Made by a program: the position numbers and the translations under genes. The notes beneath the pieces are model-generated. The model worked only from the letters and a program-made list of their open reading frames with translations, ran no database searches and was not told where the DNA came from. A DNA stretch of 64,000 nucleotides from an uncultured Pseudomonadota bacterium (GTDB lineage: Bacteria; Pseudomonadota; Gammaproteobacteria; Methylococcales; Methylomonadaceae): contig CAIYSZ010000028.1 of assembly GCA_903928965.1 (NCBI GenBank), forward strand, positions 2,837-66,836, given 5' to 3'. The number at the start of each line of letters is the position of its first letter. Within the stretch, counting starts at the first letter, position 1. Shown here in pieces: positions 25,929-52,077 of the stretch.

Positions 25929-25938
25929 CGGATTCTCT

Positions 25939-28507: not shown

Positions 28508-28912
28508 TTACTTAACCAGTTTTTGCGTTACCAAGCCGAGTTGGGAGATTTGCAAGCGGGTGACGATGTCCAGCACTTCTATGACTTTTTGGTATTGCAC
28601 GCTGGCGTCGGCTTTAACCACCACTGGCAGATCGGGTATCGCGGCTTTGTATTGCGCCAGGCGCGTCTCCAGCTCCGTTAGGGTCACCGGATAAGTGTCC
28701 AGGTATATCGTGCCGTCGGGCGTGATGGAGATGGCCTTGGTTTTCGGTTTGGCCAGCGAAGGAGTGCTGCTGGCCTTGGGCAGATTGACGGTAATGCCTT
28801 GTACGGTGGCGGTGGTCATGATGATGAAGATCAACAGCAACACATAGGCCACGTCCAGCATCGGCGTGATGTTGATATCGTCATAGACTTTCTCTTCGGA
28901 TTCGACTTTCAT
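28508..28912 (-). CDS. exbD: ExbD/TolR family protein
   Basis: INITPMLDVAYVLLLIF, VNLPKA, VKADASVQYQKVIEVLD. Confidence 0.9.
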   Translation of the reverse strand: MKVESEEKVYDDINITPMLDVAYVLLLIFIIMTTATVQGITVNLPKASSTPSLAKPKTKAISITPDGTIYLDTYPVTLTELETRLAQYKAAIPDLPVVVKADASVQYQKVIEVLDIVTRLQISQLGLVTQKLVK

Positions 28913-28918
28913 GTTTGA

Positions 28919-30739: not shown

Positions 30740-30801
30740 AATATCCTAGTGAGGTTAGGGCAAGGTTCGGAAATAGTTTGAGAGCTTGTTTTAAGTAATA
30801 A

Positions 30802-30817
30802 AGCAATAGTTATGCCA
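30802..30817 (-). promoter_or_regulatory. Sigma-54 -24/-12 promoter for the exbB...tpsB operon
   Basis: Minus strand TGGCATAACTATTGCT. Confidence 0.8.
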
Positions 30818-30856
30818 TATAGGCTGTGTCCATATAACAACAACTTGCATGCAAAT

Positions 30857-30915
30857 TGTTGATTGGATGTTGATATATCAGCATGTTGTGTTGATTAGGT
30901 GTTGATATTTGAGCA
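30857..30915. promoter_or_regulatory. Tandem enhancer (UAS) sites
   Basis: TGTTGATT-GGA-TGTTGATATATCAGCA (30857-30883) and TGTTGATT-AGG-TGTTGATATTTGAGCA (30889-30915). Confidence 0.7.
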
Positions 30916-30952
30916 GATGGTTGCTATATACGCGAAAACATATCGCACTTTC

Positions 30953-36900: not shown

Positions 36901-39900
36901 CGAGGCTGTTTAGGCCCGAATTGGCGTATTGCGTGGGATCGTAAGGGGTTAAAATATTGTCCACGCCGGGAAGTATGGCGTAGGAAGTGGCGCTGTTCAA
37001 CGCGTCGCTACTGCCGCCGTTGCCGGGTATGAATTCATAGGCGTACAATTCGCCGCCGCCGTTTAGATCAATGGTGGCGTTGGTTTGCAAGTCTATGCCT
37101 TGCCCGCTGAGCGAAAGACTTTTCTGCGGCAAGTTGGCGGCGGTAATGACGATATTGTTGCTGCCCGATAAAGGATATAGCCATTGGCTGCCGCCTTCGC
37201 CGACGCCGAACGGGACCACCGCGCCCAGGCCGGAAACCGAGGTAACGCTACCGGCGGTCAATTGCAAGTTTTGCGCGGCGTTCAAGTTAAGAGAGCCGAA
37301 CGGGGCGTCGAGCACGCCGCCCTGAATAATGTTCCTGGCGTTAATCGTAACGCCCCCCCCGGCCGACAACGGGGTTTGCGTATTGTCCTGGCCCGTGGTT
37401 TGCAGGGTCACGGAACCGGAGACGTTGAAGGTGTAATTGGTCAGGGTGGCGGGATAGATGCGTTCTGCGCCAATGACCAAATCGCCGGCTAGATTCAGTT
37501 CGCCGAGGAAATTTTTATTGCTGGTGTTGGAATCACCTAGCATGCGTACATCGCCCCGGCTTTGCAGATCGACCTGATCGAAACCGTTGAAAGCGACGCC
37601 GCCCAATAAATCCACGCCTTGGGCCGCTACCGTGAATTGAGCGTTTCCGGCGACGGCTTTGTTGGCTAGTAAGTAGTTGTTGGCGGCGATATTGACTTTA
37701 CTGGAGCCGAGTTCGACATAGGCCGCGGTAAGCGTTACCGAGGCGGCGGCGGACCCGGCCTCAATGCTCGGGCTGTCGAGGATGATTTGGCGTTCCGCGG
37801 CGAGCGAGACGTCGCCATTGAATTGAACGGCGCCGGTCAGAGCGCCATTATAGGCTTGCGCATCTGTTTTCAGGCTGATGGAGCCGAAGCCGGCGGCGTT
37901 GATGGCGTCGGCGCCGAGAAAACCTTTGTCGGCGTCGGCCACTGGCGCGTTGGCGCCTTCGACCAGTTGCACGGCGGGCGCGCCAGCGCTAATTTCCAAA
38001 AGGCTGAAGAGTTGCGGATTCAGTTGATCAGGAAATACTCCGCCTGCAATCTGGGGCGATGGTTCATTTAGCAGGGAGCGATCCAAGATTACCGACAAGG
38101 TTCCGCCCAAGGTATTGGGGCTACTGGCGGCGGCTTTGAATGCACCGCCGGCGATGATGCCCTGGCCGGATGCTAGATTGATAGAGCCGCCGTTGCCGGC
38201 GACCAGGGTGGAGGTATAGCCAACATTGCCATTGGCCCCGGTTTGTAATTGATCCAGATTGGCTGAGCGGGCGGAGACGTCGATCAGCGAGCCGGATTCG
38301 GCGACAATGTAACCGCGGTTGGCGGTCAGATTGACTGTGCCGCCATCCTTGACCACGCCGCTGGTCAAGCCGTTGATTTTGGGTTGGTCAATGACCGCGC
38401 CCGGCGCGAGAAGTTGGCTTGCGCCGCCGAGCCAGATGCCTTGATTGGCGAAATAGCCTAAATCGTTATTCGCCACATTGATAGTCAGCGAGATGTTTCC
38501 GGCCGGGGCGCTGATGACGCCGTCCGCGTAAATTGAGGTGTCGGAGCTCAGGCTGACCTTGCCGCCGGGTTCGACGCCGATGAAACTGCCGGCGCCCAAG
38601 ATTAGGGATTGCGCGCGGTTTTGGGTTTGGGTTTCGGCGAAGCCAAGGCTAAGATTGACCGGATTGCGCGTGTCGGCTGTTAAGAGCACGGGTTGGCTAA
38701 TGGCGCGCAAGTTGGCGCCGCTGGCTGTCTGTTGCGAATCCGCGTTCAGTTGTAAATTCTGTTGCAGCAGATTGAATTGGGCGTTTTTCTCAACCGTTAA
38801 ACCGTAGTTATTGGAGGTCAAGCTATAACTGGCAAACCCGCTTTGTTGAAAAAACGCGTCGGTGAATATCAAAGGCGCGGCTGATTGGGCGTTATTGACT
38901 TGGGCCAGATTGTCGGCGAGGATGATTTCGGCGGAGTTAACACTGAGTGAGCCGTCTTGTTGCAGGCCCCAGGCGCTGAGAGAGCCGTTTAATATAACGT
39001 TGGCATAAGCGGCGGTTAGGCTGATGGCGCCAGCGGAGCCGTCGCTTATCGCGCCGCTGGCTTGCAGCCAGGCCCCTGCGTCGGCGCTGATGCGGCTGCC
39101 CGGGGCCAAGGTCAAGTTTCCTTGTTCCGTCTTCAGTGTGACCTTGCCGCCGTTGATATTGATAAGGCCCGGAGTTTGGTTGTTTTGCAGCGCCAGCCAA
39201 TCATTGACCCAGTGTCCGCTGACGCTAATCAGCGCGGTTTTGCCCAGTGTGGTGGCGTCGTTGTTGAGTTCGACCGTGCCGGAGGGATTGATGATTTGAC
39301 CATTGATGTCGGTATTGCTCGCGTTGATTTGCAAGTCACCCGCTCCCGGCAGCCGCAATACGCTGTTCTGAGTTTGGGTGAAGGGGGCGTTATTAGTACT
39401 GATGATGATGTTTTGCAAGCCGGAGTTACTGAGCATGGCGCTGTTCAAATTCAACGCCACCGGTTGGCCGGCTGTGCCGGCGGCGGGGAATGCCTGATTT
39501 TCGGCAATTGACAAGCCGCTATTGCCGTTGCCGAGCACCACGGCTTGATCGCTGGATAGGTTGCCATAGTCCAATTTGATGGTCAGCTCGCCGCCGGCGG
39601 CGCGGTCAGAGGCGGTGCGTTGGTAAGCGCCGTTTTCTGCTTGGCCGTGGATGCTTGCGTCCAGCAGCGCGTTGTAACTCGAAATACTGACCGCGCCGGC
39701 GGCAAAGCCCTGGATGTAGCTTGGGCTGAAACTGGTTTGATTGACCAGCGCGGTATAAACCAAATTGGGGCTGGCCGTGCCTAGGTTATACAGTTGGCCG
39801 TTGGATTGCAAATAGGTGGTGGAGATATCCGCGCCTTGGTAGGCGATGGAGCCGCCGGAAACGTCCAGAATCGAGCCGGCGGCGGCGATGACGTCGCCGG

Positions 39901-41551
39901 TGGAAGTCAGATTAATGTTGCCGCCGGCGGTGCTGCGCGCCTCGACATCGTTTTTCAGCGCTTGCACCGGATAGCTAATGTCGGCGATGGGTACGCTAGC
40001 GATTAAGTCGCCGGAGGAATCCGTGGTGATGGTGGCGTCGCGGATGTCCACGCTGACGGTTTTGCCGTACAGCACGCCGGTGCGTTGGGTGGGCGAGTCG
40101 CGCAATTCGTTGGATTGCAATTTGACCTGTACTATGTTGTTCCGCACCGATGCAATCACGTTTTTGACGCCGGATACGTCGATTTTGGCGCCGTTCGCTA
40201 GGTAGACGCGGGCGTCGCCTCTTTGCGTGGGTGAAGCCGGGTTGTCTTGAGCGTTGACGTTGACGATGCCGGAGTGGGCTTGCACGAGGGCGCCGCTTTC
40301 GATGTTAATCTGATGGCCGTCCAGCTCAATGTCGGATTTCGGTTGGCTTTGCACGGCCAAGGCTAGACCGGAGGAGTTGTCCAGAGTGACTCCAGTAAAA
40401 CTGCCGGAGCGCAAATTTAGGGTGGCGCTTTGTCCTAGGGTGTCGCCGTAATCCGTGCTTCGCGTGGTGGCGGCTCCTTCCAGCAGGCCGTTGGTATTGG
40501 TAGGATTTTGCAGGCCTTCTTGTGCTTGCAACCTTACCTGACCGGCCAATTGGGTGGAGGTGCTGGCGGAAACGATGCCGTCTTGATTAACGGCGAAGCC
40601 TATCATGCTGATGTTGCCGCTTTTGGCGTAAACGGCGCCGGAATTATTGATTTGACCGCCGACGCCGACTTCAACCAGCAAGCCGCGCACCGAGGAGTCG
40701 GTGCTGTCTTGCAAATACACTTTGTCCTTGGCCGCCGCCAGAATCACTTGGCCGGCATTGGCGGTAATGGCGCCTTGATTATTGATGCTGGAGGCGGCGA
40801 GCAAAATGATGCCGCCGTTGGCGTTGGTTTGTATATTGGCGTCCTTTGCCACGCTAATGGGCGCAAGGCTGATCTCAATTTTATGGCCGCTGGCATCTAG
40901 AATATAATTGCCGTCTTTGTCTTGCAGGTATTGGCCCGATGCGCTGACCAAGGCCGCACCTTGGCTAATGACGGTTCCAGGGCTGGCTTGATAGGCGGCG
41001 TTAAATACGTTGCCGATGCCGGTTTGCAATGCACTTTGGCTGATGCCAAGGGTGGTGGCCACCAAGGTGTTGACGTTGACGCTGGAGCCGGGTTCAAAGA
41101 TAAAGCCGTCTTGGTTGACTAGATACACCTGGCCGTTGGCGTGTAAGGTTCCGAAAATCGTGCTGGCGTTGGCGTCGCCGATATCGTTGAGTACGATGGA
41201 GGCAGTGGAGGTTTGGTGGAAATCGACAGTATAGCCCTTGCCGATGTCGAAACTGTGCCAATTAATGATGGCGTTGTTGCCAGGGTCGATGTTGAGGGTA
41301 TGACCGTTTAAAATTTCGCTGGCGGAGCCGGATAGAGTAGGCAGGGTAAGGGTTTGGCCGGGAGACAGGGTAGGGTCCAGCAGTTGGTGGGTGGTGGGGT
41401 TTTCACCTATGGGCAGCGCCGGGTTCGCGGCGGCGGGACTAAGACCAAAGCCGAAAGCCATGCTGCCGGCGATAATGCCGCGAATGGCGCGGGTTAACGG
41501 TTTTGGATGCGGGTTGAATGGCGCGCGGGGGGATGATGCGGACGTGGTCAT
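30953..41551 (-). CDS. Filamentous haemagglutinin family exoprotein (TpsA), 3532 aa, with C-terminal DUF3739-type domain
   Basis: Signal peptide; TPS domain (IINWHSFDIG...IFGTLHANGQVYLVNQDG); G/A/S/N-rich beta-helix repeats; C-terminal NQSRVFTLGGGDITAWSSAGSIDAGKGAKS. Confidence 0.92.
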   Translation of the reverse strand: MTTSASSPRAPFNPHPKPLTRAIRGIIAGSMAFGFGLSPAAANPALPIGENPTTHQLLDPTLSPGQTLTLPTLSGSASEILNGHTLNIDPGNNAIINWHSFDIGKGYTVDFHQTSTASIVLNDIGDANASTIFGTLHANGQVYLVNQDGFIFEPGSSVNVNTLVATTLGISQSALQTGIGNVFNAAYQASPGTVISQGAALVSASGQYLQDKDGNYILDASGHKIEISLAPISVAKDANIQTNANGGIILLAASSINNQGAITANAGQVILAAAKDKVYLQDSTDSSVRGLLVEVGVGGQINNSGAVYAKSGNISMIGFAVNQDGIVSASTSTQLAGQVRLQAQEGLQNPTNTNGLLEGAATTRSTDYGDTLGQSATLNLRSGSFTGVTLDNSSGLALAVQSQPKSDIELDGHQINIESGALVQAHSGIVNVNAQDNPASPTQRGDARVYLANGAKIDVSGVKNVIASVRNNIVQVKLQSNELRDSPTQRTGVLYGKTVSVDIRDATITTDSSGDLIASVPIADISYPVQALKNDVEARSTAGGNINLTSTGDVIAAAGSILDVSGGSIAYQGADISTTYLQSNGQLYNLGTASPNLVYTALVNQTSFSPSYIQGFAAGAVSISSYNALLDASIHGQAENGAYQRTASDRAAGGELTIKLDYGNLSSDQAVVLGNGNSGLSIAENQAFPAAGTAGQPVALNLNSAMLSNSGLQNIIISTNNAPFTQTQNSVLRLPGAGDLQINASNTDINGQIINPSGTVELNNDATTLGKTALISVSGHWVNDWLALQNNQTPGLININGGKVTLKTEQGNLTLAPGSRISADAGAWLQASGAISDGSAGAISLTAAYANVILNGSLSAWGLQQDGSLSVNSAEIILADNLAQVNNAQSAAPLIFTDAFFQQSGFASYSLTSNNYGLTVEKNAQFNLLQQNLQLNADSQQTASGANLRAISQPVLLTADTRNPVNLSLGFAETQTQNRAQSLILGAGSFIGVEPGGKVSLSSDTSIYADGVISAPAGNISLTINVANNDLGYFANQGIWLGGASQLLAPGAVIDQPKINGLTSGVVKDGGTVNLTANRGYIVAESGSLIDVSARSANLDQLQTGANGNVGYTSTLVAGNGGSINLASGQGIIAGGAFKAAASSPNTLGGTLSVILDRSLLNEPSPQIAGGVFPDQLNPQLFSLLEISAGAPAVQLVEGANAPVADADKGFLGADAINAAGFGSISLKTDAQAYNGALTGAVQFNGDVSLAAERQIILDSPSIEAGSAAASVTLTAAYVELGSSKVNIAANNYLLANKAVAGNAQFTVAAQGVDLLGGVAFNGFDQVDLQSRGDVRMLGDSNTSNKNFLGELNLAGDLVIGAERIYPATLTNYTFNVSGSVTLQTTGQDNTQTPLSAGGGVTINARNIIQGGVLDAPFGSLNLNAAQNLQLTAGSVTSVSGLGAVVPFGVGEGGSQWLYPLSGSNNIVITAANLPQKSLSLSGQGIDLQTNATIDLNGGGELYAYEFIPGNGGSSDALNSATSYAILPGVDNILTPYDPTQYANSGLNSLGMGESVYLDGGAGLAAGWYTLLPAHYALLPGAFLVTPVAGTSGLLQNTETASGYTIEAGRYGVAGTAAANSLTQGFEVQPGSLFTGSLSESAAGVITSNTNSASPSQFTAYLADQFFSQSGAQLPRDAGGLTLAAAAGLNLNAALLANPASFGGLVGLGGQVNISGNNLTVVGSNSDLSALGSGVVGLVAGQLTKLNAPSLLLGGKRNGNAITITANTVTVASDVNGAQALTGNEILFTAVNQVNIAANAEIDTHSANKVAGETLTLSNNLGNGDGAILRLSNGGQDTIVRGAAIAGAEGTLNVAAGAALNASQSMLLDSSLNTVFDGSIQMDGGSLALTANRISLGDAPAGTPGLVLSALPEKLSDISLNSRGDLDLYGAASVNSKTIEISAAAINGFANAGLNVSLGVSGTTTGITLSNSGGAVSAHAGTGGGSLNLNANDITLGAGQYAITGFSQVNLEAKDAIGGQGSSQNASGDTVTASPGALSVAGNLTLTAAQLIGGAGATTSINAGNYDVTLAASGATAAATPGIGASWSISGGSISGTAQFNLPAGNLSLATGNGPINLQGGGVDLSGRIVNYTSTTYKAAPAGKLSLSAAQGDVTLAGGVNVELNGAVLNKQEVSNAGTLSVQAPAGQFVWDGSINASGGSTSLASGVTGGALQLTAANLGDVAALDQKIAAAGFTRQISLEQTAGDVQINTGTTLTAQQVQIAADQGAVILAGEINAGGASAGSVTLDGETGITLAAGSSILANALSGNNNGGSVTLDTVYKNSSGSGVLNLAGGTINVSASGTGEGGLAHLRTGRKDANDQINAVGFNTQIIGARAGGDALEATRIYNDINANTVNANIITAANITQWQTDTANFMNAAGYIDANGAALTLPAGLILSPGVEVRSDGDLTLKDAWDFESGGSGWNSNTFSWNSGWRYGDGDGDVAGFLTLSAAGDLNINASISDALATTPIPTDDILPASTDGNTLTLDQTSLFQDVIQAGFSWNYNLNAGGNVNLAADYQTLDPLGSGQTVTAQVVVRTGTGAIDVNAGNNIVFNKNLNNSDTSNNASAIYTVGTTAQYTINDLIAGNVPGMPPQPANQSLQDYIAGLDQTKLSQLLRYGLLDPTQFGLTNLFYAEYPTNGGNITLAAGGDIQGVQSGQAMTDWLVRTSGWDNGTANSANSEPTAWGINISGDMFNSASNNTLPNGDTVFGKDNRNFNQNVGALGGGNVSIQAGGSVNTLSVMIPATGKPMGVLTALANANANAAWSSNGTVVNGGGNLNITAGQNITGGEFYVAAGTGDLQAGEAINSYSATVAGNSQTVGVTLDLGDGTFNLQARQDIDVSSVMNPTLFSQATLPDYGQKNNDARFFTYTANSAVNLLSTAGNVQFLNNGATIAALDNLPLLNESGVEYDIYPGAVSAAAISGDIRIDKSMILYPSPQGNLQLLAYNTIGLNLAAGTSSIDISMSDADPSLLPGVADPAPSLDGDISSKSYLTRELLDPNSNGNQASMHALIPVHDCALQTQACSNQTPLIDALHGNLSFPASAEFTLWLPEAGDVIAGGNITNFSLQGQNLNASDVTLIQAGGSISYDTPINANGVILENNEAITLAGPGQLQVIAGGNINLGGSVGIQTVANLNNPALSATGASIQVLAGAGGTGSALDFNNFIAKYQSQYPELQGLSGLSSDQQRAQIYKFLQVLFKEISRSASLAAAAPQNKRYDLYQIGYQAIHALFPAKTKYSGDIDLVFSQIKTESGGDINLLTPGGSINVGLAGALAGVIKGASDLGIVAETTGNVNVLTNNDLNVNQSRVFTLGGGDITAWSSAGSIDAGKGAKSAVSAPAPVASVTPAGQILITYPPVISGSGIQAIGGGNVYLAAPVGVVNAGEAGISGNNIIIAATAVVGASNISASGATVGVPAAVVVPTVSGADSAAASAAKTATQTSSTDNTGNSASDAQSKNPVTLLSMDLLSFGGCSVSDIKENKKGCGG

Positions 41552-41721: not shown

Positions 41722-41767
41722 AAAATAAAAAAGCGTCGGCATACCCTAGGCAGGGTAATGTCGACGC
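41722..41767 (-). terminator. Intrinsic terminator
   Basis: Minus strand GCGTCG-ACAT-TACCCT-GCCT-AGGGTA-TGC-CGACGC followed by TTTTTTATTTT. Confidence 0.8.
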
Positions 41768-41888
41768 ATTTTGTCTTTCCATTTGTCTTTCCATGTTCCT
41801 GTGCGGCCACTCCTTTGAGGTTTCCCTTTGGCCTGTTCCTGCAACATCCCTGTTTTAAGTCGTCCGTTACTTGATTTTGTCCAATGTT

Positions 41889-42092
41889 TGCGCCGTTCCG
41901 TTAAAACTCCGTTTCTGGCGTATCCTGCCACCTCCGTTGTAGGGGCCAGTCACTTGACCCTGCCGCTTACCCTGCGTGTGCGCCGTTCCGTTGAAAGTCC
42001 GTTTCTGGCGATTCCAGCCACTTCCGTTGTGGGGGCCAGTCACTTGACCCTGCCGCTTACCCTGCGTGTGCGCCGTTCCGTTGAATATCCGT
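41889..42092. repeat. 90-bp tandem repeat, about 2.3 copies
   Basis: Unit begins TGCGCCGTTCCGTT at 41889, 41979 and 42069. Confidence 0.95.
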
Positions 42093-42226
42093 ATTCGGCA
42101 ATTCCCGTCACATCCCTGATGGAGCCTGTCCTAGACTCGGTTGCTTCCTGCTTACGCCTAATGGTTTATCCTTGGCAAAGCACATCCTTGTGCGGTAATC
42201 CTTTAGTTAAACCGATTCAAACGAGA

Positions 42227-43960
42227 TTATTTCAGCTCGATGATGTCGGTTTTCACGGTTGCAACCGGTCTTACACCCAAGTGGGTGTAACCGTCCGAAC
42301 CAACATGGCTAAGTGGAACCAAGGGGTTGCTGATTTGGAATGGAATGTCCAAAGCCACGCTGCCGCCCACCGGATGCGAAGCGGTAGTGGCGAAAATGCC
42401 TGGATTGCCCCAAGGTTGCGCTACTTGTGGGTTCACGGAAGCACCTACGCGGATGCTGCCCAAGTCATTGGCAAATGTAGTCAGGAAACCTTGGATATCG
42501 CTAGACAGCGGAATGGTAGGGATGCTGCCGGTTGCACCGGTGTAACCCGCGGCGGATTGAAACACCACCTCGCCTTCGGCCCAGAATGGGTAGCTGCCGG
42601 AGGAAACGTTTTCCACGGTTGGCGCGTAGCCGTCGATTTTTACGAAACGCCAGTTAGCGCCAATAGTAGTGTTGGTGCTGGAAAGGTCGTTGGCGGTGGC
42701 GGCGTCTATGGCGATACCCCAGTATTTGGCGCTGTTTGGATTCAGCTTGCTGGTGTTGGCGCCGGTTTGCCAGTCGAACAGCAATGCGCCGGTGTTGTTA
42801 ACGCCGGTGGCGGCGACCACGGCCGGATGCTGAGTGGCGAAAACGGCTTTGGTTTGAGAAGAAGCGGCGGCCGGCGCGGTTGAGTTTTCCGCGTACGGAT
42901 AGTTCAAGAAGGTGGCGTAGGCAGCCGCGCCAACCGCGGCGCCGTTGTTACGGATACCAACCCCGATTGGCGTCAAACCACCGGTAACGGTAGGCGCGGT
43001 AACGCCAGCGGTGGAGGCGAAGGACACCAAGGTTGCGGAAGTGCCATTGCCTAGGTTGACTTCAACGTTGTTCCAGTCGCTGATTTTGCCGGCCAGGACG
43101 GAGGCGACAAAGTCACGGCTTAAGCTAGGCAGGCTGGCGGCGTTGCTGTAATCGCCGATGGTGGTGGTGGCGGGCAATTTACCGTTGGCGATTTGCGCGG
43201 CTTGCAATACTTTATACAAGTCGGTGGTTACGGCGATGCCATAGGTCAAGCCGCCGGTTGGAATGCGTGACAGCGCGGACAAATCGCTAGGCGCCGCGCT
43301 GGTGTTCCAAGGCGAGGTGTTCGCGTTGGTGCTATATTCGGTGGTTTGAGCAGGGTAGTTTCTGGATTGAGAGTTCAATACCAGGGATTCGGAGTCCACG
43401 CCCGTGAAACCGCCGTGTGAAAAATGTTGCACGATGGAAGCCAAACCGCTGGTGGTGGTGTCAATGACTTGACCCCAGGAGCCGTCGATGGTGTTTTGAG
43501 TCCAGTTGCCGTAGCTGGCGGTGTTGCCTTGGGAGGCGTTAGCGGTTGGAGTATTGAAAATATACAGTTGGTCGATGGCGGTGCCGGCCAGGACTGGAAT
43601 CACGCCATAGCCCGCGGCGCCGCGCGAACGTTTGCCAAAATAGATTTTTTTGCCTTGCAGGTTGGCCGGCAGGTTGCTGCTACCGATGAAGTAATAACCT
43701 GTGAAGTTGGAGCCCCAGCTGCCAGAGGCTTGGCTGGTGGTGGTGGCGTCGCGGAACACATCCAAAGTGCCGGTTGCCGCCAAGGTGTTTTTCACTACGT
43801 CGTCAATGGCTGAGTCTTGCGCCGCGCCGCCGGAGGCGAAAATCACGTAATCCGGGGTGGCGTAGCCGGAGGTCCAAGGGGTAATGGCGGAAGCTGAGTT
43901 AGCGCCGGCCAATAAGGCCACGGCGATACCTAGTTTATTTAAAGTGTGTGTGTGTTTCAT
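42227..43960 (-). CDS. Secreted 577-aa protein with PstS/PBP-like motifs; no Cys and no internal Met
   Basis: Signal peptide ending ASA; LSRDFVASVLAGKISDW and KIDGYAPTVENVSSGSYPFW resemble periplasmic-binding-protein motifs. Confidence 0.85.
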   Translation of the reverse strand: MKHTHTLNKLGIAVALLAGANSASAITPWTSGYATPDYVIFASGGAAQDSAIDDVVKNTLAATGTLDVFRDATTTSQASGSWGSNFTGYYFIGSSNLPANLQGKKIYFGKRSRGAAGYGVIPVLAGTAIDQLYIFNTPTANASQGNTASYGNWTQNTIDGSWGQVIDTTTSGLASIVQHFSHGGFTGVDSESLVLNSQSRNYPAQTTEYSTNANTSPWNTSAAPSDLSALSRIPTGGLTYGIAVTTDLYKVLQAAQIANGKLPATTTIGDYSNAASLPSLSRDFVASVLAGKISDWNNVEVNLGNGTSATLVSFASTAGVTAPTVTGGLTPIGVGIRNNGAAVGAAAYATFLNYPYAENSTAPAAASSQTKAVFATQHPAVVAATGVNNTGALLFDWQTGANTSKLNPNSAKYWGIAIDAATANDLSSTNTTIGANWRFVKIDGYAPTVENVSSGSYPFWAEGEVVFQSAAGYTGATGSIPTIPLSSDIQGFLTTFANDLGSIRVGASVNPQVAQPWGNPGIFATTASHPVGGSVALDIPFQISNPLVPLSHVGSDGYTHLGVRPVATVKTDIIELK

Positions 43961-44022
43961 GTTTTAAACTCCAAAATTGAATGACGGCGATTCCTTGGAA
44001 TCCTTGGAATCGCCTGGTTTTA

Positions 44023-44922
44023 TTAGGCTTTAGTGCGTGAAGATTTGCGGCTCAAGCCCAGAGCGCCGCACAAACCGGACAAGAACAACCAAACGCCGGC
44101 GGGAACCGGAACCGAGCTTGCGCCAACCGGGTTATAGGTCAAAACGTCATTAGCGTTTAGGCTGAAGGTGCCCAATTTGCTAACAATGTTGGTGTCCGCG
44201 CCGTCGCCCAGCAGACCGTTTTGGTTGGTGACGAAGTAGAACGGAACCGAGTTAGCGCCGATGGTGCCTTCATAGGGAAACAAGGCAGAGTAAGCGAACG
44301 CGCCAGTGCCAGCCGCCGGAGCCAATACTTCGTTGCTGACGGCGTTCAACTTGGTCAAGCTGACGTTGGTCGCCGAAATGGCGCCGCCCACGGAGTCGGT
44401 GTTGACCGAAGCTTGTTCGTTTAAGCCGGCCCAACCGGCTAAGTTACCAGACCAAACGGCGGTGCTTTGCTCGGTGGCAACCACGCCCCAAGGCGCTACC
44501 GCGGTTAAAGGATAGCCGCCGGCGACATCATTCAGGTTGGTCAAAGTGTTTTGATCCAATACTGAAGCGCCGACCACGGACCAACTCAAGTGCGCGAGGT
44601 CGCCAGCAATGCTGTTGAAGTCAGCATAGTTGCTCAAGTTCCAGCTCAAGGTGGAGCTTGTGCCTTGGGTGCCGTTGACGAAGCTGGAGTAAGTCAAGCC
44701 GCTGTGGTCCAGGGACAAATCCAACAGAAAGGTTTTACCAAAGTTGGCGGAACCATTTAACTGGTCGTTAACCGCCAACAAGATGGAAGAACCCGCGCCA
44801 TTGTTGATTGGGGTTTGTTGCGACGAATCCGATGGATCGTAAGTCAGGGTTAACGCCGCGTTGGCGCTGCCCGCGACTAACGCCAGCGCAATCGCCGCGG
44901 ATAGCTTGTGAATATTTTTCAT
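44023..44922 (-). CDS. Secreted protein with VPxPA/PEP-CTERM-like C-terminal sorting signal
   Basis: Signal peptide ending ANA; C-terminus VPVPAGVWLFLSGLCGALGLSRKSSRTKA. Confidence 0.88.
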   Translation of the reverse strand: MKNIHKLSAAIALALVAGSANAALTLTYDPSDSSQQTPINNGAGSSILLAVNDQLNGSANFGKTFLLDLSLDHSGLTYSSFVNGTQGTSSTLSWNLSNYADFNSIAGDLAHLSWSVVGASVLDQNTLTNLNDVAGGYPLTAVAPWGVVATEQSTAVWSGNLAGWAGLNEQASVNTDSVGGAISATNVSLTKLNAVSNEVLAPAAGTGAFAYSALFPYEGTIGANSVPFYFVTNQNGLLGDGADTNIVSKLGTFSLNANDVLTYNPVGASSVPVPAGVWLFLSGLCGALGLSRKSSRTKA

Positions 44923-44994: not shown

Positions 44995-45010
44995 GGCAAT
45001 AAATGTGCCA
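44995..45010 (-). promoter_or_regulatory. Sigma-54 promoter for the two surface-protein genes, with adjacent IHF-like site
   Basis: Minus strand TGGCACATTTATTGCC; AATCAATAATTTA (IHF consensus WATCAAN4TTR) at 45016-45028. Confidence 0.85.
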
Positions 45011-45082: not shown

Positions 45083-45109
45083 TGTTGATTTGCTGTTGAT
45101 ATTTCAGCA
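45083..45109. promoter_or_regulatory. Enhancer (UAS) site
   Basis: TGTTGATT-TGC-TGTTGATATTTCAGCA. Confidence 0.7.
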
Positions 45110-45253
45110 GCTTGCGGTATTCGATTCAGTATTATTCAGGAAAAACAAAATCTTATTAAAGTCGGTTGTCTGGTTTTATTGAAAAATTGTTTATTCAAAA
45201 AATATATTCTGTTTTAGCGTATTTTTTCAAAATTAATTTTCGCAATATATGTA

Positions 45254-45469
45254 TCAAAGGATATATTGGTCTTGCTGCGATTTTTCTTGATTTGATTCGT
45301 TAGGTTTTTTGCCTTGGTTAAATCGAAAGCGTTCCCGTTTATCTATTTGTACGATGCGGCCTTCATGCACCACAATTTCCAACGAACCGAAACGGATGTT
45401 TTTTAAAAAACCAATAATTTGAGTTATGGTCTCTTGGTATTCATCGCCATTGGGTAGATTTTGTTCCAT
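45254..45469 (-). CDS. YezD/DUF2292 (OscA-like) small protein
   Basis: FGSLEIVVHEGRIVQIDKRERFRF; this family is typically linked to sulfur-starvation loci. Confidence 0.85.
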   Translation of the reverse strand: MEQNLPNGDEYQETITQIIGFLKNIRFGSLEIVVHEGRIVQIDKRERFRFNQGKKPNESNQEKSQQDQYIL

Positions 45470-45562: not shown

Positions 45563-45578
45563 AGCAGTCTTTGTGCCA
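45563..45578 (-). promoter_or_regulatory. Sigma-54 promoter for the oscA-like gene
   Basis: Minus strand TGGCACAAAGACTGCT; degenerate UAS TGCTGATT-AGG-TGTTGAATTTTGGTCA at 45650-45676. Confidence 0.8.
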
Positions 45579-45776: not shown

Positions 45777-46712
45777 TTAGTGTTTGGCCGTGACGCCGCC
45801 GGCATGCGCCGGGTAAACGGCCGAGTTTATTTGCCGGGTCGGGCTAGGATTTTTTTTTACCGGCTCGGATTGCGAATCATGGTGTTGTTGGCCGTCATGT
45901 TTAGGTTCATCGTATTGCACGAATTGGAAACCGTGGCGGCGCGCCAATTCAATGTGTCTTGTCGGGTTGGCGTTGAATAATACGCCTTGACCGCCTAGGG
46001 CGAGCCCGAAGCGGGCGAATTCTTGCGCCTGCTCCTCGAATTCATCGCCTCGTTGTTCATGGTCCGGGGCTTGCAGGCCGATGAAATCGGCGGCGGCGCG
46101 GTTGATGAAGGTTTGCGAGGTTTTGTCCAGGCTGCCCGCCGTGAACTTTAGCGCCAGGCGGTAGCCGCGGCGTTGGTAGTTTTCCAAGCCTTTCAGCAGA
46201 ATGGGGTAAAGCCGTAAATAGTCTTGGTCCACCGTGAGTACGATGACGATATTGCCGGTGTGCAGGCCGCATTTGTGGATGATTTCTTCAAAGTACGCGC
46301 CGTGATCGGATTTTACGCCGAGTATGTGCCGGGGGTCGACATCCAGAAACAGTAATTCCTCTAGGTGGGCTTGCGGCAGAAAATTCAGCATGTGTACGGT
46401 GCGGGCCAACCGGTCAAAGTCTATGACTGATTGGTATGGCGGATTGCCGCCGATATCGCCGGCCAAAGGCGAGTTTTCGGCCAATAGCGGCGGAAGTTGT
46501 TCCTCGCTGACATTCACGGTTAGTTGGGCGTAGCTGCCGACAGTTATTTCTAGCGCGTCGACGCAGCGGACCGGTTTCAGGCGGCTGCCGATGCGTAGCG
46601 GCCCGAATAGCGCTTGCGCCGCGCCGTCTTGCAGAGTAAAGGCGCGCGAGGTGTTTTTATGTTCTTGTTCCAAACGGTCGTTGAAATATTCGACCAGTTG
46701 TTGTAATGGCAT
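45777..46712 (-). CDS. Degenerate EAL-domain-like protein
   Basis: FDRLARTVHMLNF, LFLDVDPRH, YQRRGYRLAL.F: EAL-fold features without the EAL motif. Confidence 0.65.
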   Translation of the reverse strand: MPLQQLVEYFNDRLEQEHKNTSRAFTLQDGAAQALFGPLRIGSRLKPVRCVDALEITVGSYAQLTVNVSEEQLPPLLAENSPLAGDIGGNPPYQSVIDFDRLARTVHMLNFLPQAHLEELLFLDVDPRHILGVKSDHGAYFEEIIHKCGLHTGNIVIVLTVDQDYLRLYPILLKGLENYQRRGYRLALKFTAGSLDKTSQTFINRAAADFIGLQAPDHEQRGDEFEEQAQEFARFGLALGGQGVLFNANPTRHIELARRHGFQFVQYDEPKHDGQQHHDSQSEPVKKNPSPTRQINSAVYPAHAGGVTAKH

Positions 46713-47262
46713 TCATGGCTCCGGAATGGCTCGAATGTTGGATAAAAAAAGTCGGCGGGAGCGAGTTCCCGCCGAACAACGTCCCTGTTTAACAGCCATA
46801 AGTTGCAAGCTTTAAGGTCAGACTAAGACAGCTAATTAAGCCGCGGGTATAGAGTAAGCGTTTATTAATATTTTTAAAAACGATATAAATAGATTTATAT
46901 ATCTCTTTTTTGAAAAATCCTTAAATTTCAAATACTCGGCATGGATTGGGCCATAGGCTTTTGATTGTGTATATCAAAAAATGTGATATATTTATCTAAT
47001 TTTATAATAAATAATGTTTTTAATGACTTAGGTGATATTTTTGCTTGACATGGATTGAGCTAAACTGTTACTGTAATAAAAAAACAAGCTGACCGGACTT
47101 CCGGAAGCCGTGCCTTTTGGCAAAGCGGAATTCTGAAATCATGTGTGGATAATCTATAAGGAAACAGATTATGAAGCTTGAATTAAAACTTGTAGTTTTT
47201 ATTTATTTTGTCGAAGTTTATTTTTCAATGGTTGCGAGCGGCCGCGCCGCCGAGGCGGCGCA

Positions 47263-48162
47263 ATGACGACGCAAAACCAGGAACCTTGGCGTATCGATTT
47301 TTTGGTCAGTGAATTGCGCCGCTTGCGCTTGACCTCCCTGGAAGCTCGGCAACGCCGCGACCATCCGCCGAAATTGCCCTCGCGTAAGGCATTGACGCAA
47401 ATTGTAGACGATTTGGCGGCGGCTTTGTTTCCCAATCGCTTGGGTCAGCCGGATATCAGCCCGGAAGAGGTGGATTATTTTGTCGGCAATACCTTGGCCT
47501 CGGTGTTAAGACGCTTGAGCCGGCAAATCGCCTTGGAGTTGCAATTTAATGCCGAGCAAAACCAGCAGGTTTTGGACGCGCATGTGGAGGCGTTGGCGCT
47601 GACGCAGCAATTCGCCGCCGGTTTGCCGGATATCCGCGCCTTAATCGATACCGACATCAAAGCCGCGTTTGAGGGCGATCCGGCGGCGCGCAGCATTGAC
47701 GAGGTACTGGTTTGCTATCCCGGCGTCAACGCTATGATGCATCAACGCATCGCGCATCGTTTGTACCGCTTTGGCGCGCATTTGTCCGCGCGCATGATCG
47801 CCGAGATTGCGCATTCAGCCACTGGTATTGACATTCATCCCGGCGCTGAAATCGGCGAGAGTTTTTTTATTGATCACGGCACCGGCGTGGTGATTGGGGA
47901 AACCGCGGTCATTGGGCGGCGGGTGCGTATCTACCAAGCGGTGACTCTGGGCGCCAAACGTTTCGATAAGGACGAGCAGGGGATTCTAGTGAAGGGTAAC
48001 GCCCGGCATCCGATAGTCGAGGACGACGTGGTGATTTATGCCGGCGCAACTATTTTAGGCCGCATCGTGATCGGCCAGGGTTCGGTTATAGGCGGTAACG
48101 TCTGGTTGACGCATAGCGTGCCGCCGGGCAGTCAAGTCACGCAAGCGCATGTGCGCAGCTAG
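47263..48162 (+). CDS. cysE: Serine O-acetyltransferase (CysE/EpsC type)
   Basis: GDPAARS..EVLVCYPG, TGIDIHPGA.IG..FFIDHGTGVVIGET, IYQAVTLGA, RHPIVED. Confidence 0.93.
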   Translation: MTTQNQEPWRIDFLVSELRRLRLTSLEARQRRDHPPKLPSRKALTQIVDDLAAALFPNRLGQPDISPEEVDYFVGNTLASVLRRLSRQIALELQFNAEQNQQVLDAHVEALALTQQFAAGLPDIRALIDTDIKAAFEGDPAARSIDEVLVCYPGVNAMMHQRIAHRLYRFGAHLSARMIAEIAHSATGIDIHPGAEIGESFFIDHGTGVVIGETAVIGRRVRIYQAVTLGAKRFDKDEQGILVKGNARHPIVEDDVVIYAGATILGRIVIGQGSVIGGNVWLTHSVPPGSQVTQAHVRS

Positions 48163-48276
48163 TGTTGCAGGAGGGGTGAAATCTTAGCATTTCGCGTTTG
48201 AACGGCCGGCCGCGGCGTTTTCCTTTCCGCATCCGGTTTTTACATTATCTTTTATTCATAATTATAGGTAACCAAA

Positions 48277-49194
48277 ATGTCAGACATACATCAAGCTCAT
48301 ACCGCGTTAGGCGACGTCGCGGCGCGTACATTATCCAACGCTACTAAAACCGTGCCTATGATGGGGGCCATCACCCCGCGTTGGTTGGTGCATTTGTTGC
48401 AATGGGTGCCGGTTGAAGCCGGTATTTACCGGGTGAACAAAGTCAAAAGCGAAACCAGCATCGCGGTTGATTGTTCCAGTCTGGACGAGAAAGTGCTGCC
48501 GCAAACTTATGTGGATTACGAGGAATGGGGCCGCGAGTACCGCTTGAACGCGGTGAACACGGTGTTGGACGTGCATACTCGGGTAGCGGATTTGTACAGC
48601 AGCCCGCATAACCAAATTCACGAACAATTGCGCTTGACCATCGAAACCGTGAAAGAGCGTCAAGAAAGCGAGTTGATTAATAATGCCGAATACGGTTTGT
48701 TGAACAATGTTTCGCAAAGCCAAAAAGTGTCCACTCGCTCCGGCGCGCCGACTCCGGATGATTTGGACGAGTTGATTTCATTGGTGTGGAAAGAACCGGG
48801 TTTTTTCTTGGCGCATCCTAAAGCCATCGCCGCTTTCGGCCGCGAGGCCACTTGGCGCGGCACCCCGCCTCCGACTGTTAGCTTGTTCGGTTCGCAATTT
48901 TTGACCTGGCGCGGTTTGCCGTTGATTCCGACCGACAAATTGAAAATCGAAAACGGCAAGACCAATATCATTTTGCTGCGCACCGGCGAAAGTCGGCAAG
49001 GGGTGGTCGGTCTGTATCAACCGAATTTGACCGATGAGGTGCACATGGGCTTGTCGGTGCGGTTTATGGGCATTAACCATAAGGCCATCGCTTCTTATTT
49101 GGTGTCTTTGTACTGTTCCTTGGCGGTGTTGACCGAGGATGCCCTGGGCGTACTCGAAAATGTTGATGTAGGCCAATACCATGAGTATAAATAA
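48277..49194 (+). CDS. Family 2A encapsulin shell protein (SrpI-like)
   Basis: TALGDVAARTLSNATKTVPMMGAITPRWLVHLLQWVPVEAGIYRVN, PTPDDLDEL, GLSVRFMGI, ASYLVSLYCSLAVL; 305 aa, between cysE and a desulfurase. Confidence 0.92.
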   Translation: MSDIHQAHTALGDVAARTLSNATKTVPMMGAITPRWLVHLLQWVPVEAGIYRVNKVKSETSIAVDCSSLDEKVLPQTYVDYEEWGREYRLNAVNTVLDVHTRVADLYSSPHNQIHEQLRLTIETVKERQESELINNAEYGLLNNVSQSQKVSTRSGAPTPDDLDELISLVWKEPGFFLAHPKAIAAFGREATWRGTPPPTVSLFGSQFLTWRGLPLIPTDKLKIENGKTNIILLRTGESRQGVVGLYQPNLTDEVHMGLSVRFMGINHKAIASYLVSLYCSLAVLTEDALGVLENVDVGQYHEYK

Positions 49195-50785
49195 TCAAAC
49201 CTTGGAAAAATTGGCCGGTTTGGCCATGAGCGGAAGTTCGCCTTCCGCCGGCTTGCCGGACGCCGGTTTGCTGCGGCAATGGGCTAGCCAGTTGTTCGCG
49301 GCGATGCCGAACCAGTCGGCTTCGCTGGAGCCGGTGCAATACGCTCCGCAATTGAGCGGGGCAGGATTGCCTGCCTTGCCTGGCGTGGATTCCGGAGCGT
49401 TGTCTGCGTTGGCGCGGCGTTCGTTCACTAACCCGAACGACATTGGTTTGGCCCCGTGGCCGGTTCCGAGCGCCGGGTCCGGGGAGAGCGCCGCGCCGGT
49501 TAATTATTATTTCGTTAGCGAGTTGGCCAAGCATGCCGCGGACCCTTCATTGGCTCCGGCGGAGTTTGACGTGCAACGGGTGCGCCGCGATTTTCCGATC
49601 TTGCAGGAACGGGTGAACGGTTATCCGTTGGCTTGGCTGGATAATGCGGCCACCACGCAGAAACCGCTGGCGGTGATAGACCGGATCTCGGAGTTTTATA
49701 AACACGAGAATTCAAATATTCACCGCGCGGCGCATGAGTTGGCGGCTCGCGCTACTGATGCCTATGAACACGCGCGGGATGTGGTGGCGCGGTTTTTGAA
49801 CGCGTCGTCCAGCAACGAAATTATTTTCGTGCGCGGTTCGACCGAAGGCATCAATCTGGTCGCGAAGAGTTGGGGCAAGCAAAATATCGGCGCCGGCGAC
49901 GAGATCGTGATCAGTTGGCTGGAGCATCATGCCAATATCGTGCCTTGGCAGCAGTTAGCCGCCGAAACCGGCGCGGTGTTGCGAGTGATCCCGGTGGACG
50001 ATCACGGTCAGGTTATTCTGGCTGAGTTTCAAAAACTGTTGAATCCGCGTACCAAGCTGGTGTCGTTCACGCATGTTTCAAATGCCCTGGGCACCATTAC
50101 TCCGGCGCATGAGATGATTGAGATGGCGCACCGCGCCGGGGCCAGGGTATTGCTGGACGCTGCGCAATCAGTGTCGCATATCCGGGTGGACGTGCAAAGC
50201 TTGAATCCCGATTGGCTGGTGTTTTCCGGGCATAAAATCTTCGGTCCCACCGGTATTGGCGTGGTTTACGGTAAATTCGACTTGTTGGAGGAGACTCAAC
50301 CCTGGCAAGGCGGCGGCAATATGATAGAGGACGTGACTTTCGAGCATACCCGTTATCAACCGGCGCCGGCTAAATTTGAGGCGGGCACCGGCAATATCGC
50401 CGACGCGGTGGGACTGGGCGCGGCTCTGGAGTATTTGAGCGGTTTAGGCATCGAGCGGGTGGCGTATTACGAGCATGAGTTGCTGCACTATGGCACGCAC
50501 GTGCTGCAAGGCATTCCCGGCGTGCGCTTGATCGGCACCGCGCCGGATAAAACCAGCGTGCTGTCGTTCGTGTTGGCGGGTTATAGTCCGTTGGAGGTCG
50601 GTACGGCGTTGAATGAGGCAGGCATAGCGGTGCGCGCCGGTCATCATTGCGCGCAACCGATTCTGCGCCGCTTTGGGTTGGAGAGCACGGTGCGTCCGTC
50701 GCTGGCTTTCTATAACACCTACGAGGAAATCGACCGTTTGGGCGGCGTGATTAAACGCTTGCAGTGCCAAAAACGGTATTTTTAG
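49181..50785 (+). CDS. Encapsulin cargo cysteine desulfurase (SufS type) with N-terminal extension
   Basis: About 125-aa Pro/Ala/Ser-rich N-terminus, then FDVQRVRRDFPIL, WLDNAATTQKP, FSGHK (PLP Lys), RAGHHCAQP. Confidence 0.93.
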   Translation: MSINNQTLEKLAGLAMSGSSPSAGLPDAGLLRQWASQLFAAMPNQSASLEPVQYAPQLSGAGLPALPGVDSGALSALARRSFTNPNDIGLAPWPVPSAGSGESAAPVNYYFVSELAKHAADPSLAPAEFDVQRVRRDFPILQERVNGYPLAWLDNAATTQKPLAVIDRISEFYKHENSNIHRAAHELAARATDAYEHARDVVARFLNASSSNEIIFVRGSTEGINLVAKSWGKQNIGAGDEIVISWLEHHANIVPWQQLAAETGAVLRVIPVDDHGQVILAEFQKLLNPRTKLVSFTHVSNALGTITPAHEMIEMAHRAGARVLLDAAQSVSHIRVDVQSLNPDWLVFSGHKIFGPTGIGVVYGKFDLLEETQPWQGGGNMIEDVTFEHTRYQPAPAKFEAGTGNIADAVGLGAALEYLSGLGIERVAYYEHELLHYGTHVLQGIPGVRLIGTAPDKTSVLSFVLAGYSPLEVGTALNEAGIAVRAGHHCAQPILRRFGLESTVRPSLAFYNTYEEIDRLGGVIKRLQCQKRYF

Positions 50786-50795: not shown

Positions 50796-51848
50796 CTAGC
50801 CGGCTTTTTGTCCGCTCGGCAGCATGCCGTAACGTGCGAGTTTATGTCTCAGCACGTTACGGCTGATGTCGAGCAGGCGCGCGGTGTGCACCTGGTTTTC
50901 CTCGCAGAATTCGTAGGCGGTGCGGATGACGGTTTCTTCTATGATTTCGTAAAGTTTGGGCGGCCCTTGTTCGCACAGGCGTTGCAAGGCGCTTTCCAAT
51001 GAGGTGGTGGATACCATGGGCGCGCTGCTGCCATGGATTCTGACCCCGGACAGTTTGAAATCTTCAGGCCGTAGCCGGTTGCCCGGGCAGACCAGCAAGG
51101 CCCTATGCACGGCGTTTTCCAATTCGCGGATGTTGCCGGGCCAGTCGTAATTCAATAATACCAGTTCGGTGGCGGGGGAGAGTTTGATGTCGTTATATCC
51201 TAGCCGGTCGCCGTAGATTTTCAAAAAATGTTGCGTCAGGGGCAGGATGTCGCCGGGTCGGTCGCGTAGCGGCGACAGCTGCAGGGCGGCGACGTTGAAG
51301 CGGTAATACAAGTCGGCGCGAAAATGCGAGGCGGCCACCGCTTCTTCCAGGTTGACGTTGGTGGCGGCGATGATGCGCACGTCCACCGGCACCGGGGTGC
51401 GGGAGCCGACCTTGACCACTTCACGTTCTTGCAGCACTCTGAGCAGCTTGACTTGCAAGCCCAGCGGCAGGTCGCCGACTTCGTCTAGAAACAGGCTGCC
51501 TTTGTTGGCGTTTTCAAACCAGCCGATCTTGGTGGCCAGCGCGCCGGTGAAAGCGCCTTTTTCGTGGCCGAACAGTTCGCTTTCTATCAGGTTTTCGCTC
51601 AAGGCGGCGCAGTTGAGCGCGCCGAAAGTGTTGTTGTTGCGCTTGCTCAAGGCGTGAATGTGCCGGGCTACCAGTTCCTTGCCGGTGCCGGTTTCACCGA
51701 TGATTAACACGGTGGCGTCGCTGGGGGCGATGCGCTCAATTTGCTCCAGCAAGCGGCGGGAGACGGGATCTTCAAATACCAGAGCCGAGGCGCGCACGGA
51801 GAGTGAGAGCGACCGCGATTCCAGTTCGTCGAATGTCAGTAAGGTCAT
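50796..51848 (-). CDS. Sigma-54-dependent Fis-family activator lacking an N-terminal sensor (SfnR-like)
   Basis: [38 protein letters not shown]-terminal HTH; only about 20 aa precede the AAA domain. Confidence 0.92.
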
Positions 51849-51936: not shown

Positions 51937-51952
51937 TGCATTATTTGCGCCA
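51937..51952 (-). promoter_or_regulatory. Sigma-54 promoter of the activator gene
   Basis: Minus strand TGGCGCAAATAATGCA. Confidence 0.75.
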
Positions 51953-52003
51953 TGTTGGCAAGGTGTTAATATTAAAACATTTATTGTTTGTAAGTCAAAT
52001 AAA

Positions 52004-52052
52004 TGTTGATATATCAACAGCAATTTGCTGATTGTGTGTTTATATATCAGCA
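52004..52052. promoter_or_regulatory. Tandem enhancer (UAS) sites
   Basis: Perfect palindrome TGTTGATATATCAACA (52004-52019) and TGCTGATT-GTG-TGTTTATATATCAGCA (52026-52052). Confidence 0.75.
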
Positions 52053-52077
52053 GTCAAAGGGGCGCGCCGGGCAGCGG

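Follow-up and report, generated by a model that had tools for sequence, protein, structure and literature searches.

Loss of methionine and cysteine from an exported protein with a predicted PstS-like fold in an uncultured member of the Methylomonadaceae: a candidate case of sulfur sparing

The window analysed here is a stretch of 64,000 nucleotides from an uncultured gammaproteobacterium of the family Methylomonadaceae (assembly GCA_903928965.1, contig CAIYSZ010000028.1, positions 2,837 to 66,836 of the forward strand). It encodes on its minus strand two adjacent exported proteins, p577 (42227-43960) and p299 (44023-44922), whose mature chains are free of methionine (Met) and cysteine (Cys) except for one Cys in the C-terminal tail of p299. 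Sequence comparison indicates that the depletion is real, selected and sulfur-specific, and we assign a probability of about one half to the reading that it reflects sulfur sparing in exported proteins that the cell cannot recover, sharpened by use of the system when sulfur is short. Because exported proteins cannot be recycled, their sulfur would be lost to the cell, and the removal of Met and Cys would spare it. Cells probably turn to the system at times of sulfur scarcity or of high sulfur demand, since p577 genes are repeatedly found adjacent to an operon for CysK, serine O-acetyltransferase (SAT), an encapsulin and a cysteine desulfurase. Extracellular proteins are known to contain about 46% less sulfur and are not recycled (Smith & Chapman 2010, PMC2932507).

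By residue count, p577 (577 amino acids, aa) contains no Cys and no Met other than the initiator, and the 299 aa of p299 include the initiator Met and a single Cys at position 285, which lies within the C-terminal tail VPVPAGVWLFLSGLCGALGLSRKSSRTKA. These counts are exactly those given in an earlier note on this DNA, which had also observed, correctly, that the adjoining machinery keeps its sulfur residues (Met+Cys 11 of 614 residues in Porin_5, 8 of 515 in TpsB and 11 of 605 in the ExbB-like protein). We surveyed the whole genome (3.25 Mb, 54% GC, 116 contigs; 2525 genes called with a codon model) and found a mean Met+Cys content of 2.87%, with 2.24% in a crude set of signal-peptide proteins. 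The probability that neither residue occurs over the 553 mature residues of p577 ranges from about 1e-7 (genome mean) to 4e-6, and is 2e-4 at a content of 1.5%. The argument from improbability made in the earlier note therefore stands insofar as chance is excluded even at 1.5%, but the background that it used was too generous, since exported proteins with no or almost no sulfur residues form an entire class in this genome. Sulfur residues are lacking altogether in ten proteins of 200 aa or more, the sulfur-free run of p577 ranks only 12th-longest in the genome, and the cores of the PEP-CTERM-like proteins (n=32) average 0.64% Met+Cys, with none in 14 of the 32. What makes p577 remarkable, unlike p299, is that its relatives are sulfur-rich.

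A word-indexed search recovered 106 p577 homologues with 33-57% identity from Methylovulum, Methylobacter, Methylomicrobium, Methylomonas and Nitrosomonas. Past residue 30, the 56,184 residues of these 106 orthologues include 25 Met and 16 Cys (41 together; 0.073%), and 79 of the orthologues have zero. An exhaustive phmmer search over 1.8 billion representatives yielded 313 relatives of p577, among which the distant ones are bimodally distinct, with 8-12 Cys and 3-14 Met each; in 104 wider-family relatives, Met makes up 1.30% and Cys 1.99% of residues. Sulfur residues consequently drop 45-fold from the wider family (3.29%) to the sulfur-free clade, and Met alone falls from 1.30% to 0.04%. The sulfur-free state, when mapped on a tree built from 137 representatives, requires at least 5 changes, as opposed to 25.9 in shuffles, and it has at least three origins, namely the clade of the window protein (support 100), a group formed by P0132, P0141 and P0205, and P0180, all of which are nested among sulfur-rich sequences. 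The independent lineages (P0132, P0141, P0180 and P0205) lie on contigs too short to reveal their gene context, beyond a 284-aa gene, TpsB and TpsA beside P0141. Eight to nine Cys columns are kept in 92-97% of the sulfur-rich relatives, and at conserved Cys columns the window p577 carries A61, F91, T139, V165, G335, Y356, L393 and G562. These comparisons indicate that the absence of Met and Cys from p577 is an evolved trait, maintained by selection, in a family that is normally sulfur-rich, which bears out the claim of the earlier note that the depletion is under selection.

The survey also disposes of plain compositional bias, according to which the residues would be missing by chance and without any selection on sulfur. 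p577 is indeed rich in Ala, Gly, Ser, Thr and Asn, as are many exported proteins, but beyond the value of about 1e-7 at genome frequency, the trait is kept in some 100 orthologues down to 33% identity, is convergent and is bimodal relative to the wider family. We therefore ruled this explanation out on the orthologue content of 0.073% and the convergence, and consider its remaining probability to be negligible. In the sulfur-free clade, Trp, Tyr and His are undepleted, and Trp and Tyr are even higher than in the sulfur-rich relatives. The loss is therefore specific for sulfur, as opposed to cost-cutting or a general avoidance of oxidisable residues, and general minimisation of amino-acid cost was rejected because Trp and Tyr are unreduced.

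The aromatic residues also speak against the idea that Met and Cys, of all residues the most prone to oxidation, were lost for the sake of function in an oxidising exterior without repair, whatever the sulfur supply. Such oxidation-proofing would be in keeping with the many sulfur-free exported proteins of the genome, with the independence of the trait from a sulfur or molybdenum context (see below) and with the encapsulin literature, which mentions a role in redox stress as well. On the other hand, the cytoplasmic activator and the inner-membrane ExbB-like protein encoded in the window are sulfur-poor too, and equivalent systems of the same cell make use of paralogues that are sulfur-rich and have signal peptides. 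On balance we think oxidation-proofing unlikely, while taking it seriously.

The paralogues in question are two sulfur-rich relatives of p577 with signal peptides, encoded in the same genome, the mature chains of which contain 8 Cys and 1 Met, and 10 Cys and 1 Met, respectively (9 of 545 and 11 of 518 residues, compared with 0 of 553 in p577). Both are encoded in equivalent TpsA loci, so the suggestion in the earlier note that the sulfur-free proteins might be paralogues of a standard protein proved right. p577 thus combines strong Met and Cys depletion relative to its homologues with a sulfur-rich paralogue in its own genome, a combination expected of a sulfur-sparing isoform. Each of the two paralogous loci (contig C36, 8352-30482; contig C114, 59498-72496) encodes a small PEP-CTERM protein, a p577-like protein and a giant TpsA, and the C36 locus additionally encodes TpsB, ExbB-LamG, ExbD, TonB, Porin_5 and a coiled-coil protein. 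The build of TpsA/TpsB, PEP-CTERM protein and binding protein accordingly occurs in three copies in the genome, and ExbB-ExbD-TonB-Porin_5 is present on contigs C28 and C36.

These loci are relevant to a further explanation, in which the clade adopted an export step for which the chain must be unfolded and free of disulfides, Cys was purged as a result, and the loss of Met is a by-product of a low-Met composition. Passengers of two-partner and type 1 secretion systems are typically Cys-poor, and over a length of about 3500 aa the TpsA proteins studied here contain 1-4 Cys. However, Cys-rich paralogues are encoded in the same locus type, and the export route therefore tolerates disulfides; moreover, the Sec signal of p577 is ordinary, its predicted fold is compact, and the decrease of Met to 25 in 56,184 residues goes well past drift. 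A secretion constraint of this kind is in our view very unlikely.

The earlier note had made no use of the genes adjoining the locus, which provide a link to sulfur metabolism. These are a DUF2292/OscA-like gene, the gene for a 311-aa protein (p311) and, divergent from the p299-p577 unit, an operon for SAT, the shell of a family 2A encapsulin and the cysteine desulfurase that is its cargo (47263-50785, plus strand; NF041162, 523.7 bits; NF041166, 854 bits). Operons of this type are induced about 10-fold under sulfur limitation in Acinetobacter and Synechococcus (PMC10836720, PMC8049743). We found p577 loci adjacent to SAT, encapsulin and desulfurase genes (SAT-Enc-CyD), often together with CysK, in the window and in G020/L065, G072/L083, G029, G065, L049, L070, L071 and L106, that is, across several genera and in at least four arrangements. 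One of these is a co-directional SAT-Enc-CyD-p299-p577-TpsA string, which CysK precedes in L049 and L106, and in another a stand-alone p577 abuts the SAT-Enc-CyD operon; CysK alone flanks p577 in L059 and L061. The number of genomes in which the unit adjoins the CysK-SAT-encapsulin-desulfurase operon is put at 11. Among 81 genomes of the same family, the encapsulin is present in 11 of the 12 that carry the sulfur-free gene, compared with 30 of the 69 that lack it (Fisher p=0.003).

Several of our observations weigh against sulfur sparing under sulfur shortage. The adjacency just described could in part be inherited synteny within one bacterial family, and sulfur genes are absent within 10 kb of most related loci. 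When flanking genes were clustered across 65 named loci, the commonest unexpected neighbours of p577 were the molybdate genes ModE, Mop, ModA, ModB and ModC, which occur in 11 other loci; in two uncultured Methylococcales metagenome-assembled genomes (L090, 8617-14279, and L091), sulfur-free p577 lies within a molybdate-uptake operon of the arrangement modE, mop-p577-modA-modB-modC, by a nifS-cysE/nif cluster. The sulfur-free state is constant whether the context is sulfur, molybdate or neither. The earlier note had named homologues that are sulfur-free regardless of context as a refutation of its proposal, and within the sulfur-free clade this is what we found, which comes close to refuting it, but the distant homologues are clearly sulfur-rich. 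The SAT-encapsulin operon has neither the enhancer palindrome of the p299-p577 unit (see below) nor a good sigma-54 box in front of it, so that co-regulation would be hypothetical. Codon adaptation places p577 and p299 at the 45th-50th percentile and the encapsulin genes at the 85th-91st, on an index that discriminates weakly here (reference: rpoB, rpoC, fusA and a 145-aa gene between rpoC and fusA that is probably rpsL). Codon usage is thus average for the two genes and gives no sign of the very high abundance that the earlier note had proposed. Finally, the sulfur-free core of p299 is ordinary among the PEP-CTERM-like proteins of the genome (P ~0.2), so that of the two chains proposed in the earlier note to be sulfur-sparing, p577 stands out against its sulfur-rich relatives and p299 is typical of its kind.

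The molybdate loci raise the question of whether ligand chemistry could explain the composition. If p577 handled molybdate, tungstate or a similar metal oxyanion, that is, a ligand that is thiophilic or reacts with thiols, then thiols and thioethers would have been removed to prevent side reactions, and the sulfur genes nearby would reflect the supply of sulfur for molybdenum cofactor (Moco), iron-molybdenum cofactor (FeMo-co) and iron-sulfur (Fe-S) clusters, as opposed to starvation. The position of p577 in or beside modE-mop-modABC in the 11 loci, next to nifS-cysE in L090 and L091, fits this idea, as does the predicted PstS-like oxyanion-binding fold, and the putative binding motifs SGGAAQD, RGAAGYG and RNNGAA are invariant across the sulfur-free clade, which suggests one ligand class. 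Yet in the tree of that clade the molybdate contexts are restricted to a derived subclade, whereas the p299-linked subgroup of the window has sulfur contexts only. In addition, a reactive ligand leaves unexplained the loss of Met and Cys that are buried or distant, as well as the low sulfur content of TpsA, p299 and the activator, and we regard ligand chemistry as a quite unlikely cause. Sulfur sparing, by comparison, is the reading that we prefer.

Structure prediction places p577, which is exported by the Sec route, in an unnamed family whose solute-binding fold resembles that of PstS. The protein starts with a Sec signal peptide (ASA|I), and its AF2 model (pLDDT 86, pTM 0.88) shows the two-lobed alpha/beta binding fold of PstS-like type II proteins with large insertions. 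In a Foldseek search against the PDB, the top 42 matches were all phosphate-binding proteins of the PstS/PhoX/DING type, with a best E value of 3e-8, target TM scores of 0.45-0.56 (top ~0.54) and a probability of 1.0 to many PstS structures. p577 had no match in Pfam or NCBIfam, and none in a family profile search of PDB sequences; a weak precomputed match to PBP_like_2 was present only on the distant relative P0180. In a motif alignment made by hand, p577 appears to keep the Arg and Asp of the anion site (R111, R337 and D189), with Ala in place of the hydroxyl donors (in SGGAAQD, RGAAGYG and RNNGAA). No pst genes were found across the 65 related loci, some of which contain modABC. A weaker conclusion, based on the fold together with neighbours from mod and cys operons, is that p577 may bind a tetrahedral group-VI oxyanion, i.e. 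sulfate, thiosulfate or molybdate.

p299 is predicted to be an exported protein that is sorted to the surface by a VPLPA/PEP-CTERM-type signal. Reading its sequence, we recognised an N-terminal signal peptide, a mature core without Met or Cys and a tail with a VPxPA motif, a hydrophobic helix and a basic cluster. The score against TIGR03370 (VPLPA-CTERM) was 18.5 bits, under the cut-off of 25.35, and at NCBI the p299 homologue P0110 bears the name VPLPA-CTERM protein. Of the 12 open reading frames (ORFs) listed as p299 orthologues, 11 carry the CTERM tail, the exception being a 528-aa match in L049; the cores of these are sulfur-free in 10 of 11, and the eleventh, also from L049 and with its ORF start called upstream, has 3 Met and 1 Cys. 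The AF2 model of p299 is poor (pLDDT 55). The description of both proteins as surface proteins in the earlier note is consequently supported for p299 by its sorting signal, whereas p577 is better described as a Sec-exported PstS-like binding protein.

p299 and p577 are predicted to form one sigma-54-dependent, activator-dependent unit, which begins with an enhancer palindrome and a -24/-12 promoter, continues through p299 and then p577, and closes with a long 3' region that is GGA-rich and is followed by a terminator. The promoter TGGCACatttaTTGC lies at 44995-45010 on the minus strand, 72 nt upstream of the p299 start codon, and 27 of 52 related loci have similar boxes at a distance of 63-115 nt before the gene with which the p299/p577 unit starts. 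At 45093-45110, about 95 bp further up from the promoter, we identified an enhancer-like 18-bp palindrome, CTGTTGATATTTCAGCAG, which has 6 matches in the window compared with 0.12 expected, 5 of them upstream of sigma-54 promoter-like sites. Copies that accompany a sigma-54 box are found in front of p299 and of the ExbB-like operon, and two precede the activator gene; the palindrome is kept in 19 of the 52 related loci, often paired 32 bp apart, and many related species share the combination of promoter and palindrome. Downstream of p577, the region at 41727-42226 (minus strand) is GGA-rich and includes a 90-bp tandem repeat (41889-42105, 2.4 copies) and a terminator hairpin at ~41727-41767 followed by a U-run (-20.7 kcal/mol, z -5.1). 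Because of this terminator, p299-p577 would be transcribed separately from TpsA. Rfam gave no match in the GGA-rich 3' region or in intergenic regions; the GGA-rich region might act as a regulatory RNA or serve as a protein sponge.

The likely regulator is a sensor-less sigma-54 activator encoded at 50796-51848 on the minus strand, with upstream sites to 52053 and an AAA+ domain that begins at residue 24. Its gene has a -24/-12 box of its own (51937-51952) and two enhancer palindromes (52003-52020 and 52036-52053), and an orthologue is encoded divergently beside p577 in 12 related loci. No NCBIfam model names the protein. A -24/-12 promoter, sites in common with the activator gene and an activator without a sensory domain, the marks of a sigma-54 regulon under a sensor-less activator, are thus all found here. 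The activator contains 1.7% Met+Cys (0.8-2.5% in orthologues), compared with 4.4% in its closest paralogue (55% identity), which is encoded together with three sulfur-poor proteins on contig C66 (35-8210); this contig may represent a second regulon of the same kind.

The p299-p577 unit stands at the head of a system of TpsA/TpsB, ExbB-ExbD-TonB and Porin_5, and the same palindrome is found at the machinery operon and at the activator gene. The remaining components are encoded at 23614-41551 on the minus strand and comprise TpsA (30953-41551), ExbB-DUF2341-LamG (28919-30739), ExbD, a TonB-like protein, Porin_5, a coiled-coil protein and TpsB (23614-25218); the machinery operon has its own sigma-54 box at 30802-30817 and palindromes at 30867-30884 and 30899-30916. 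The window TpsA contains 0.62% Met+Cys. We compared 10 sulfur-free with 5 Cys-type systems from related genomes and found that Met+Cys was lower in the former for TpsA (0.63% vs 1.09%) and for the ExbB-like protein (1.82% vs 2.93%), whereas porin, TonB and ExbD were equal. A component-wise comparison of the window system with the paralogous C36 system gave 0.95% and 1.56%, respectively (p=0.002). The trend towards sulfur depletion is system-wide and is concentrated in the exported bulk proteins.

If p577 does bind a group-VI oxyanion, then p577, its partner p299 and the TpsA/TpsB-ExbBD-TonB-Porin_5 machinery could together be an undescribed scavenger for such anions at the level of the envelope (sulfate or thiosulfate in the subgroup of the window, molybdate in the derived subgroup), which the sensor-less activator would switch on together with the sulfur-storing encapsulin in sulfur shortage, and of which zero sulfur would be the signature. 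We offer this extension as a doubtful proposal.

Other features of the locus and the genome deserve mention. The DUF2292/OscA-like ORF encodes 71 aa (45254-45469, minus strand) and matches PF10055 (E 1.3e-15) and, below the cut-off of 85 bits, NF033785, the model of the sulfur-starvation protein OscA (E 3.3e-11, 43 bits); a sigma-54-like box, TGGCACaaagaCTGC, is positioned to serve it at 45563-45578 (minus strand), and G016, G032 and G077 encode homologues close to the encapsulin operon. p311 (45777-46712, minus strand) has no Pfam or NCBIfam match and is found beside SAT-Enc-CyD in G071, G065 and G077. A short ORF at 47171-47266 (plus strand), MKLELKLVVFIYFVEVYFSMVASGRAAEAAQ, overlaps the SAT start codon with its end and might encode a leader peptide for the encapsulin operon. 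Nitrosomonas, a betaproteobacterial ammonia oxidiser, contains the sulfur-free p577-TpsB-TpsA unit (L082, L084, L086, L093 and L098), and the nesting of these copies inside the Methylococcales clade suggests that they were acquired by horizontal transfer.

Within the sulfur-poor class of the genome, the extreme is a 3875-aa repeat protein (contig C62, 5702-17329) with one Met or Cys after the initiator and a sulfur-free run of 3324 residues. A second CysK-SAT pair (contig C61, 7147-12671) adjoins genes for two secreted paralogues, one of 629 aa with 1 sulfur residue and one of 532 aa with 4, which make up another sulfur-poor exoprotein pair by cysteine-synthesis genes. Two paralogous sulfatases (C113, 19315-22566; C9, 15530-18724), behind each of which a PEP-CTERM protein is encoded, were assigned by a match to PF00884 for C113 and by sequence similarity alone for C9; they have 2-3 sulfur residues per ~830 aa, and one of these residues is the Cys in the motif SLCSPTR, which we take to be the catalytic one. 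The sulfur scavengers of the genome are likewise sulfur-poor, with 2 sulfur residues of 345 in an SBP_bac_11 binding protein encoded beside cysTWA-like genes and 2 of 827 in one sulfatase.

Sulfur sparing and sulfur-poor exoproteins are already known, and the present case is unusually complete and convergent. If sulfur sparing is indeed the cause, p577 would be among the cleanest bacterial examples of a total eradication of Met and Cys, with about 100 orthologues, four to five conserved disulfides replaced and at least three origins. The locus further offers a handle on three uncharacterised subjects: an unnamed family of exported PstS-like proteins, a TpsA system linked with ExbB-ExbD-TonB and with a porin, and the accessory genes by which family 2A sulfur-storage encapsulins are accompanied in methanotrophs and in ammonia oxidisers. 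There are carriers in culture, such as Methylovulum miyakonense HT12, Methylomicrobium album BG8, M. lacus, Methylomonas aurea and Nitrosomonas oligotropha Nm45, and the hypothesis is therefore directly testable.

Comparison with known systems places these proteins as follows. S-layer proteins have few or no sulfur amino acids, and assemble by themselves into a lattice that is the dominant protein of the cell; we considered this identity for p577 and set it aside, as the solute-binding fold and average codon usage oppose it. With secreted phosphate-binding proteins of the PstS/DING type, p577 shares the two-lobed type II fold and export by a signal peptide, but it differs in having no similarity at the sequence level, large insertions, Ala in place of phosphate-contacting Ser/Thr (by hand alignment) and no adjacent pst genes; in Pseudomonas, PstS/DING genes presumably also have TpsA in their genomic neighbourhood. 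p299 resembles the PEP-CTERM/VPLPA-CTERM substrates of exosortase in its signal peptide, VPxPA motif, hydrophobic helix and basic tail, and has homologues so named by NCBI, although its own HMM score is under the cut-off. The activator is like the SfnR-type activators of Pseudomonas sulfate starvation in that it is sensor-less and has -24/-12 targets with upstream palindromes.

Cyanobacteria reportedly produce a sulfur-depleted phycocyanin under sulfur limitation (Mazel & Marliere 1989), and yeast is said to spare sulfur in a similar way (Fauchon 2002), while binding proteins and sulfatases induced by sulfate starvation form a sulfur-depleted class. p577 is like these sulfur-limited isoforms in that one paralogue is depleted, sulfur-rich paralogues are kept and sulfur-assimilation genes are neighbours, and in that the sulfate-type binding protein and sulfatases of its own genome are sulfur-poor too. 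It differs in being exported and not cytoplasmic and in showing the trait in molybdate loci as well. With the economical extracellular proteins described by Smith & Chapman, the locus shares sulfur-poor exports that would not be recyclable, a description that fits the whole exoprotein class of this genome; the difference is that aromatic residues are unreduced here, so that the economy is specific for sulfur and absolute, as opposed to a mild shift.

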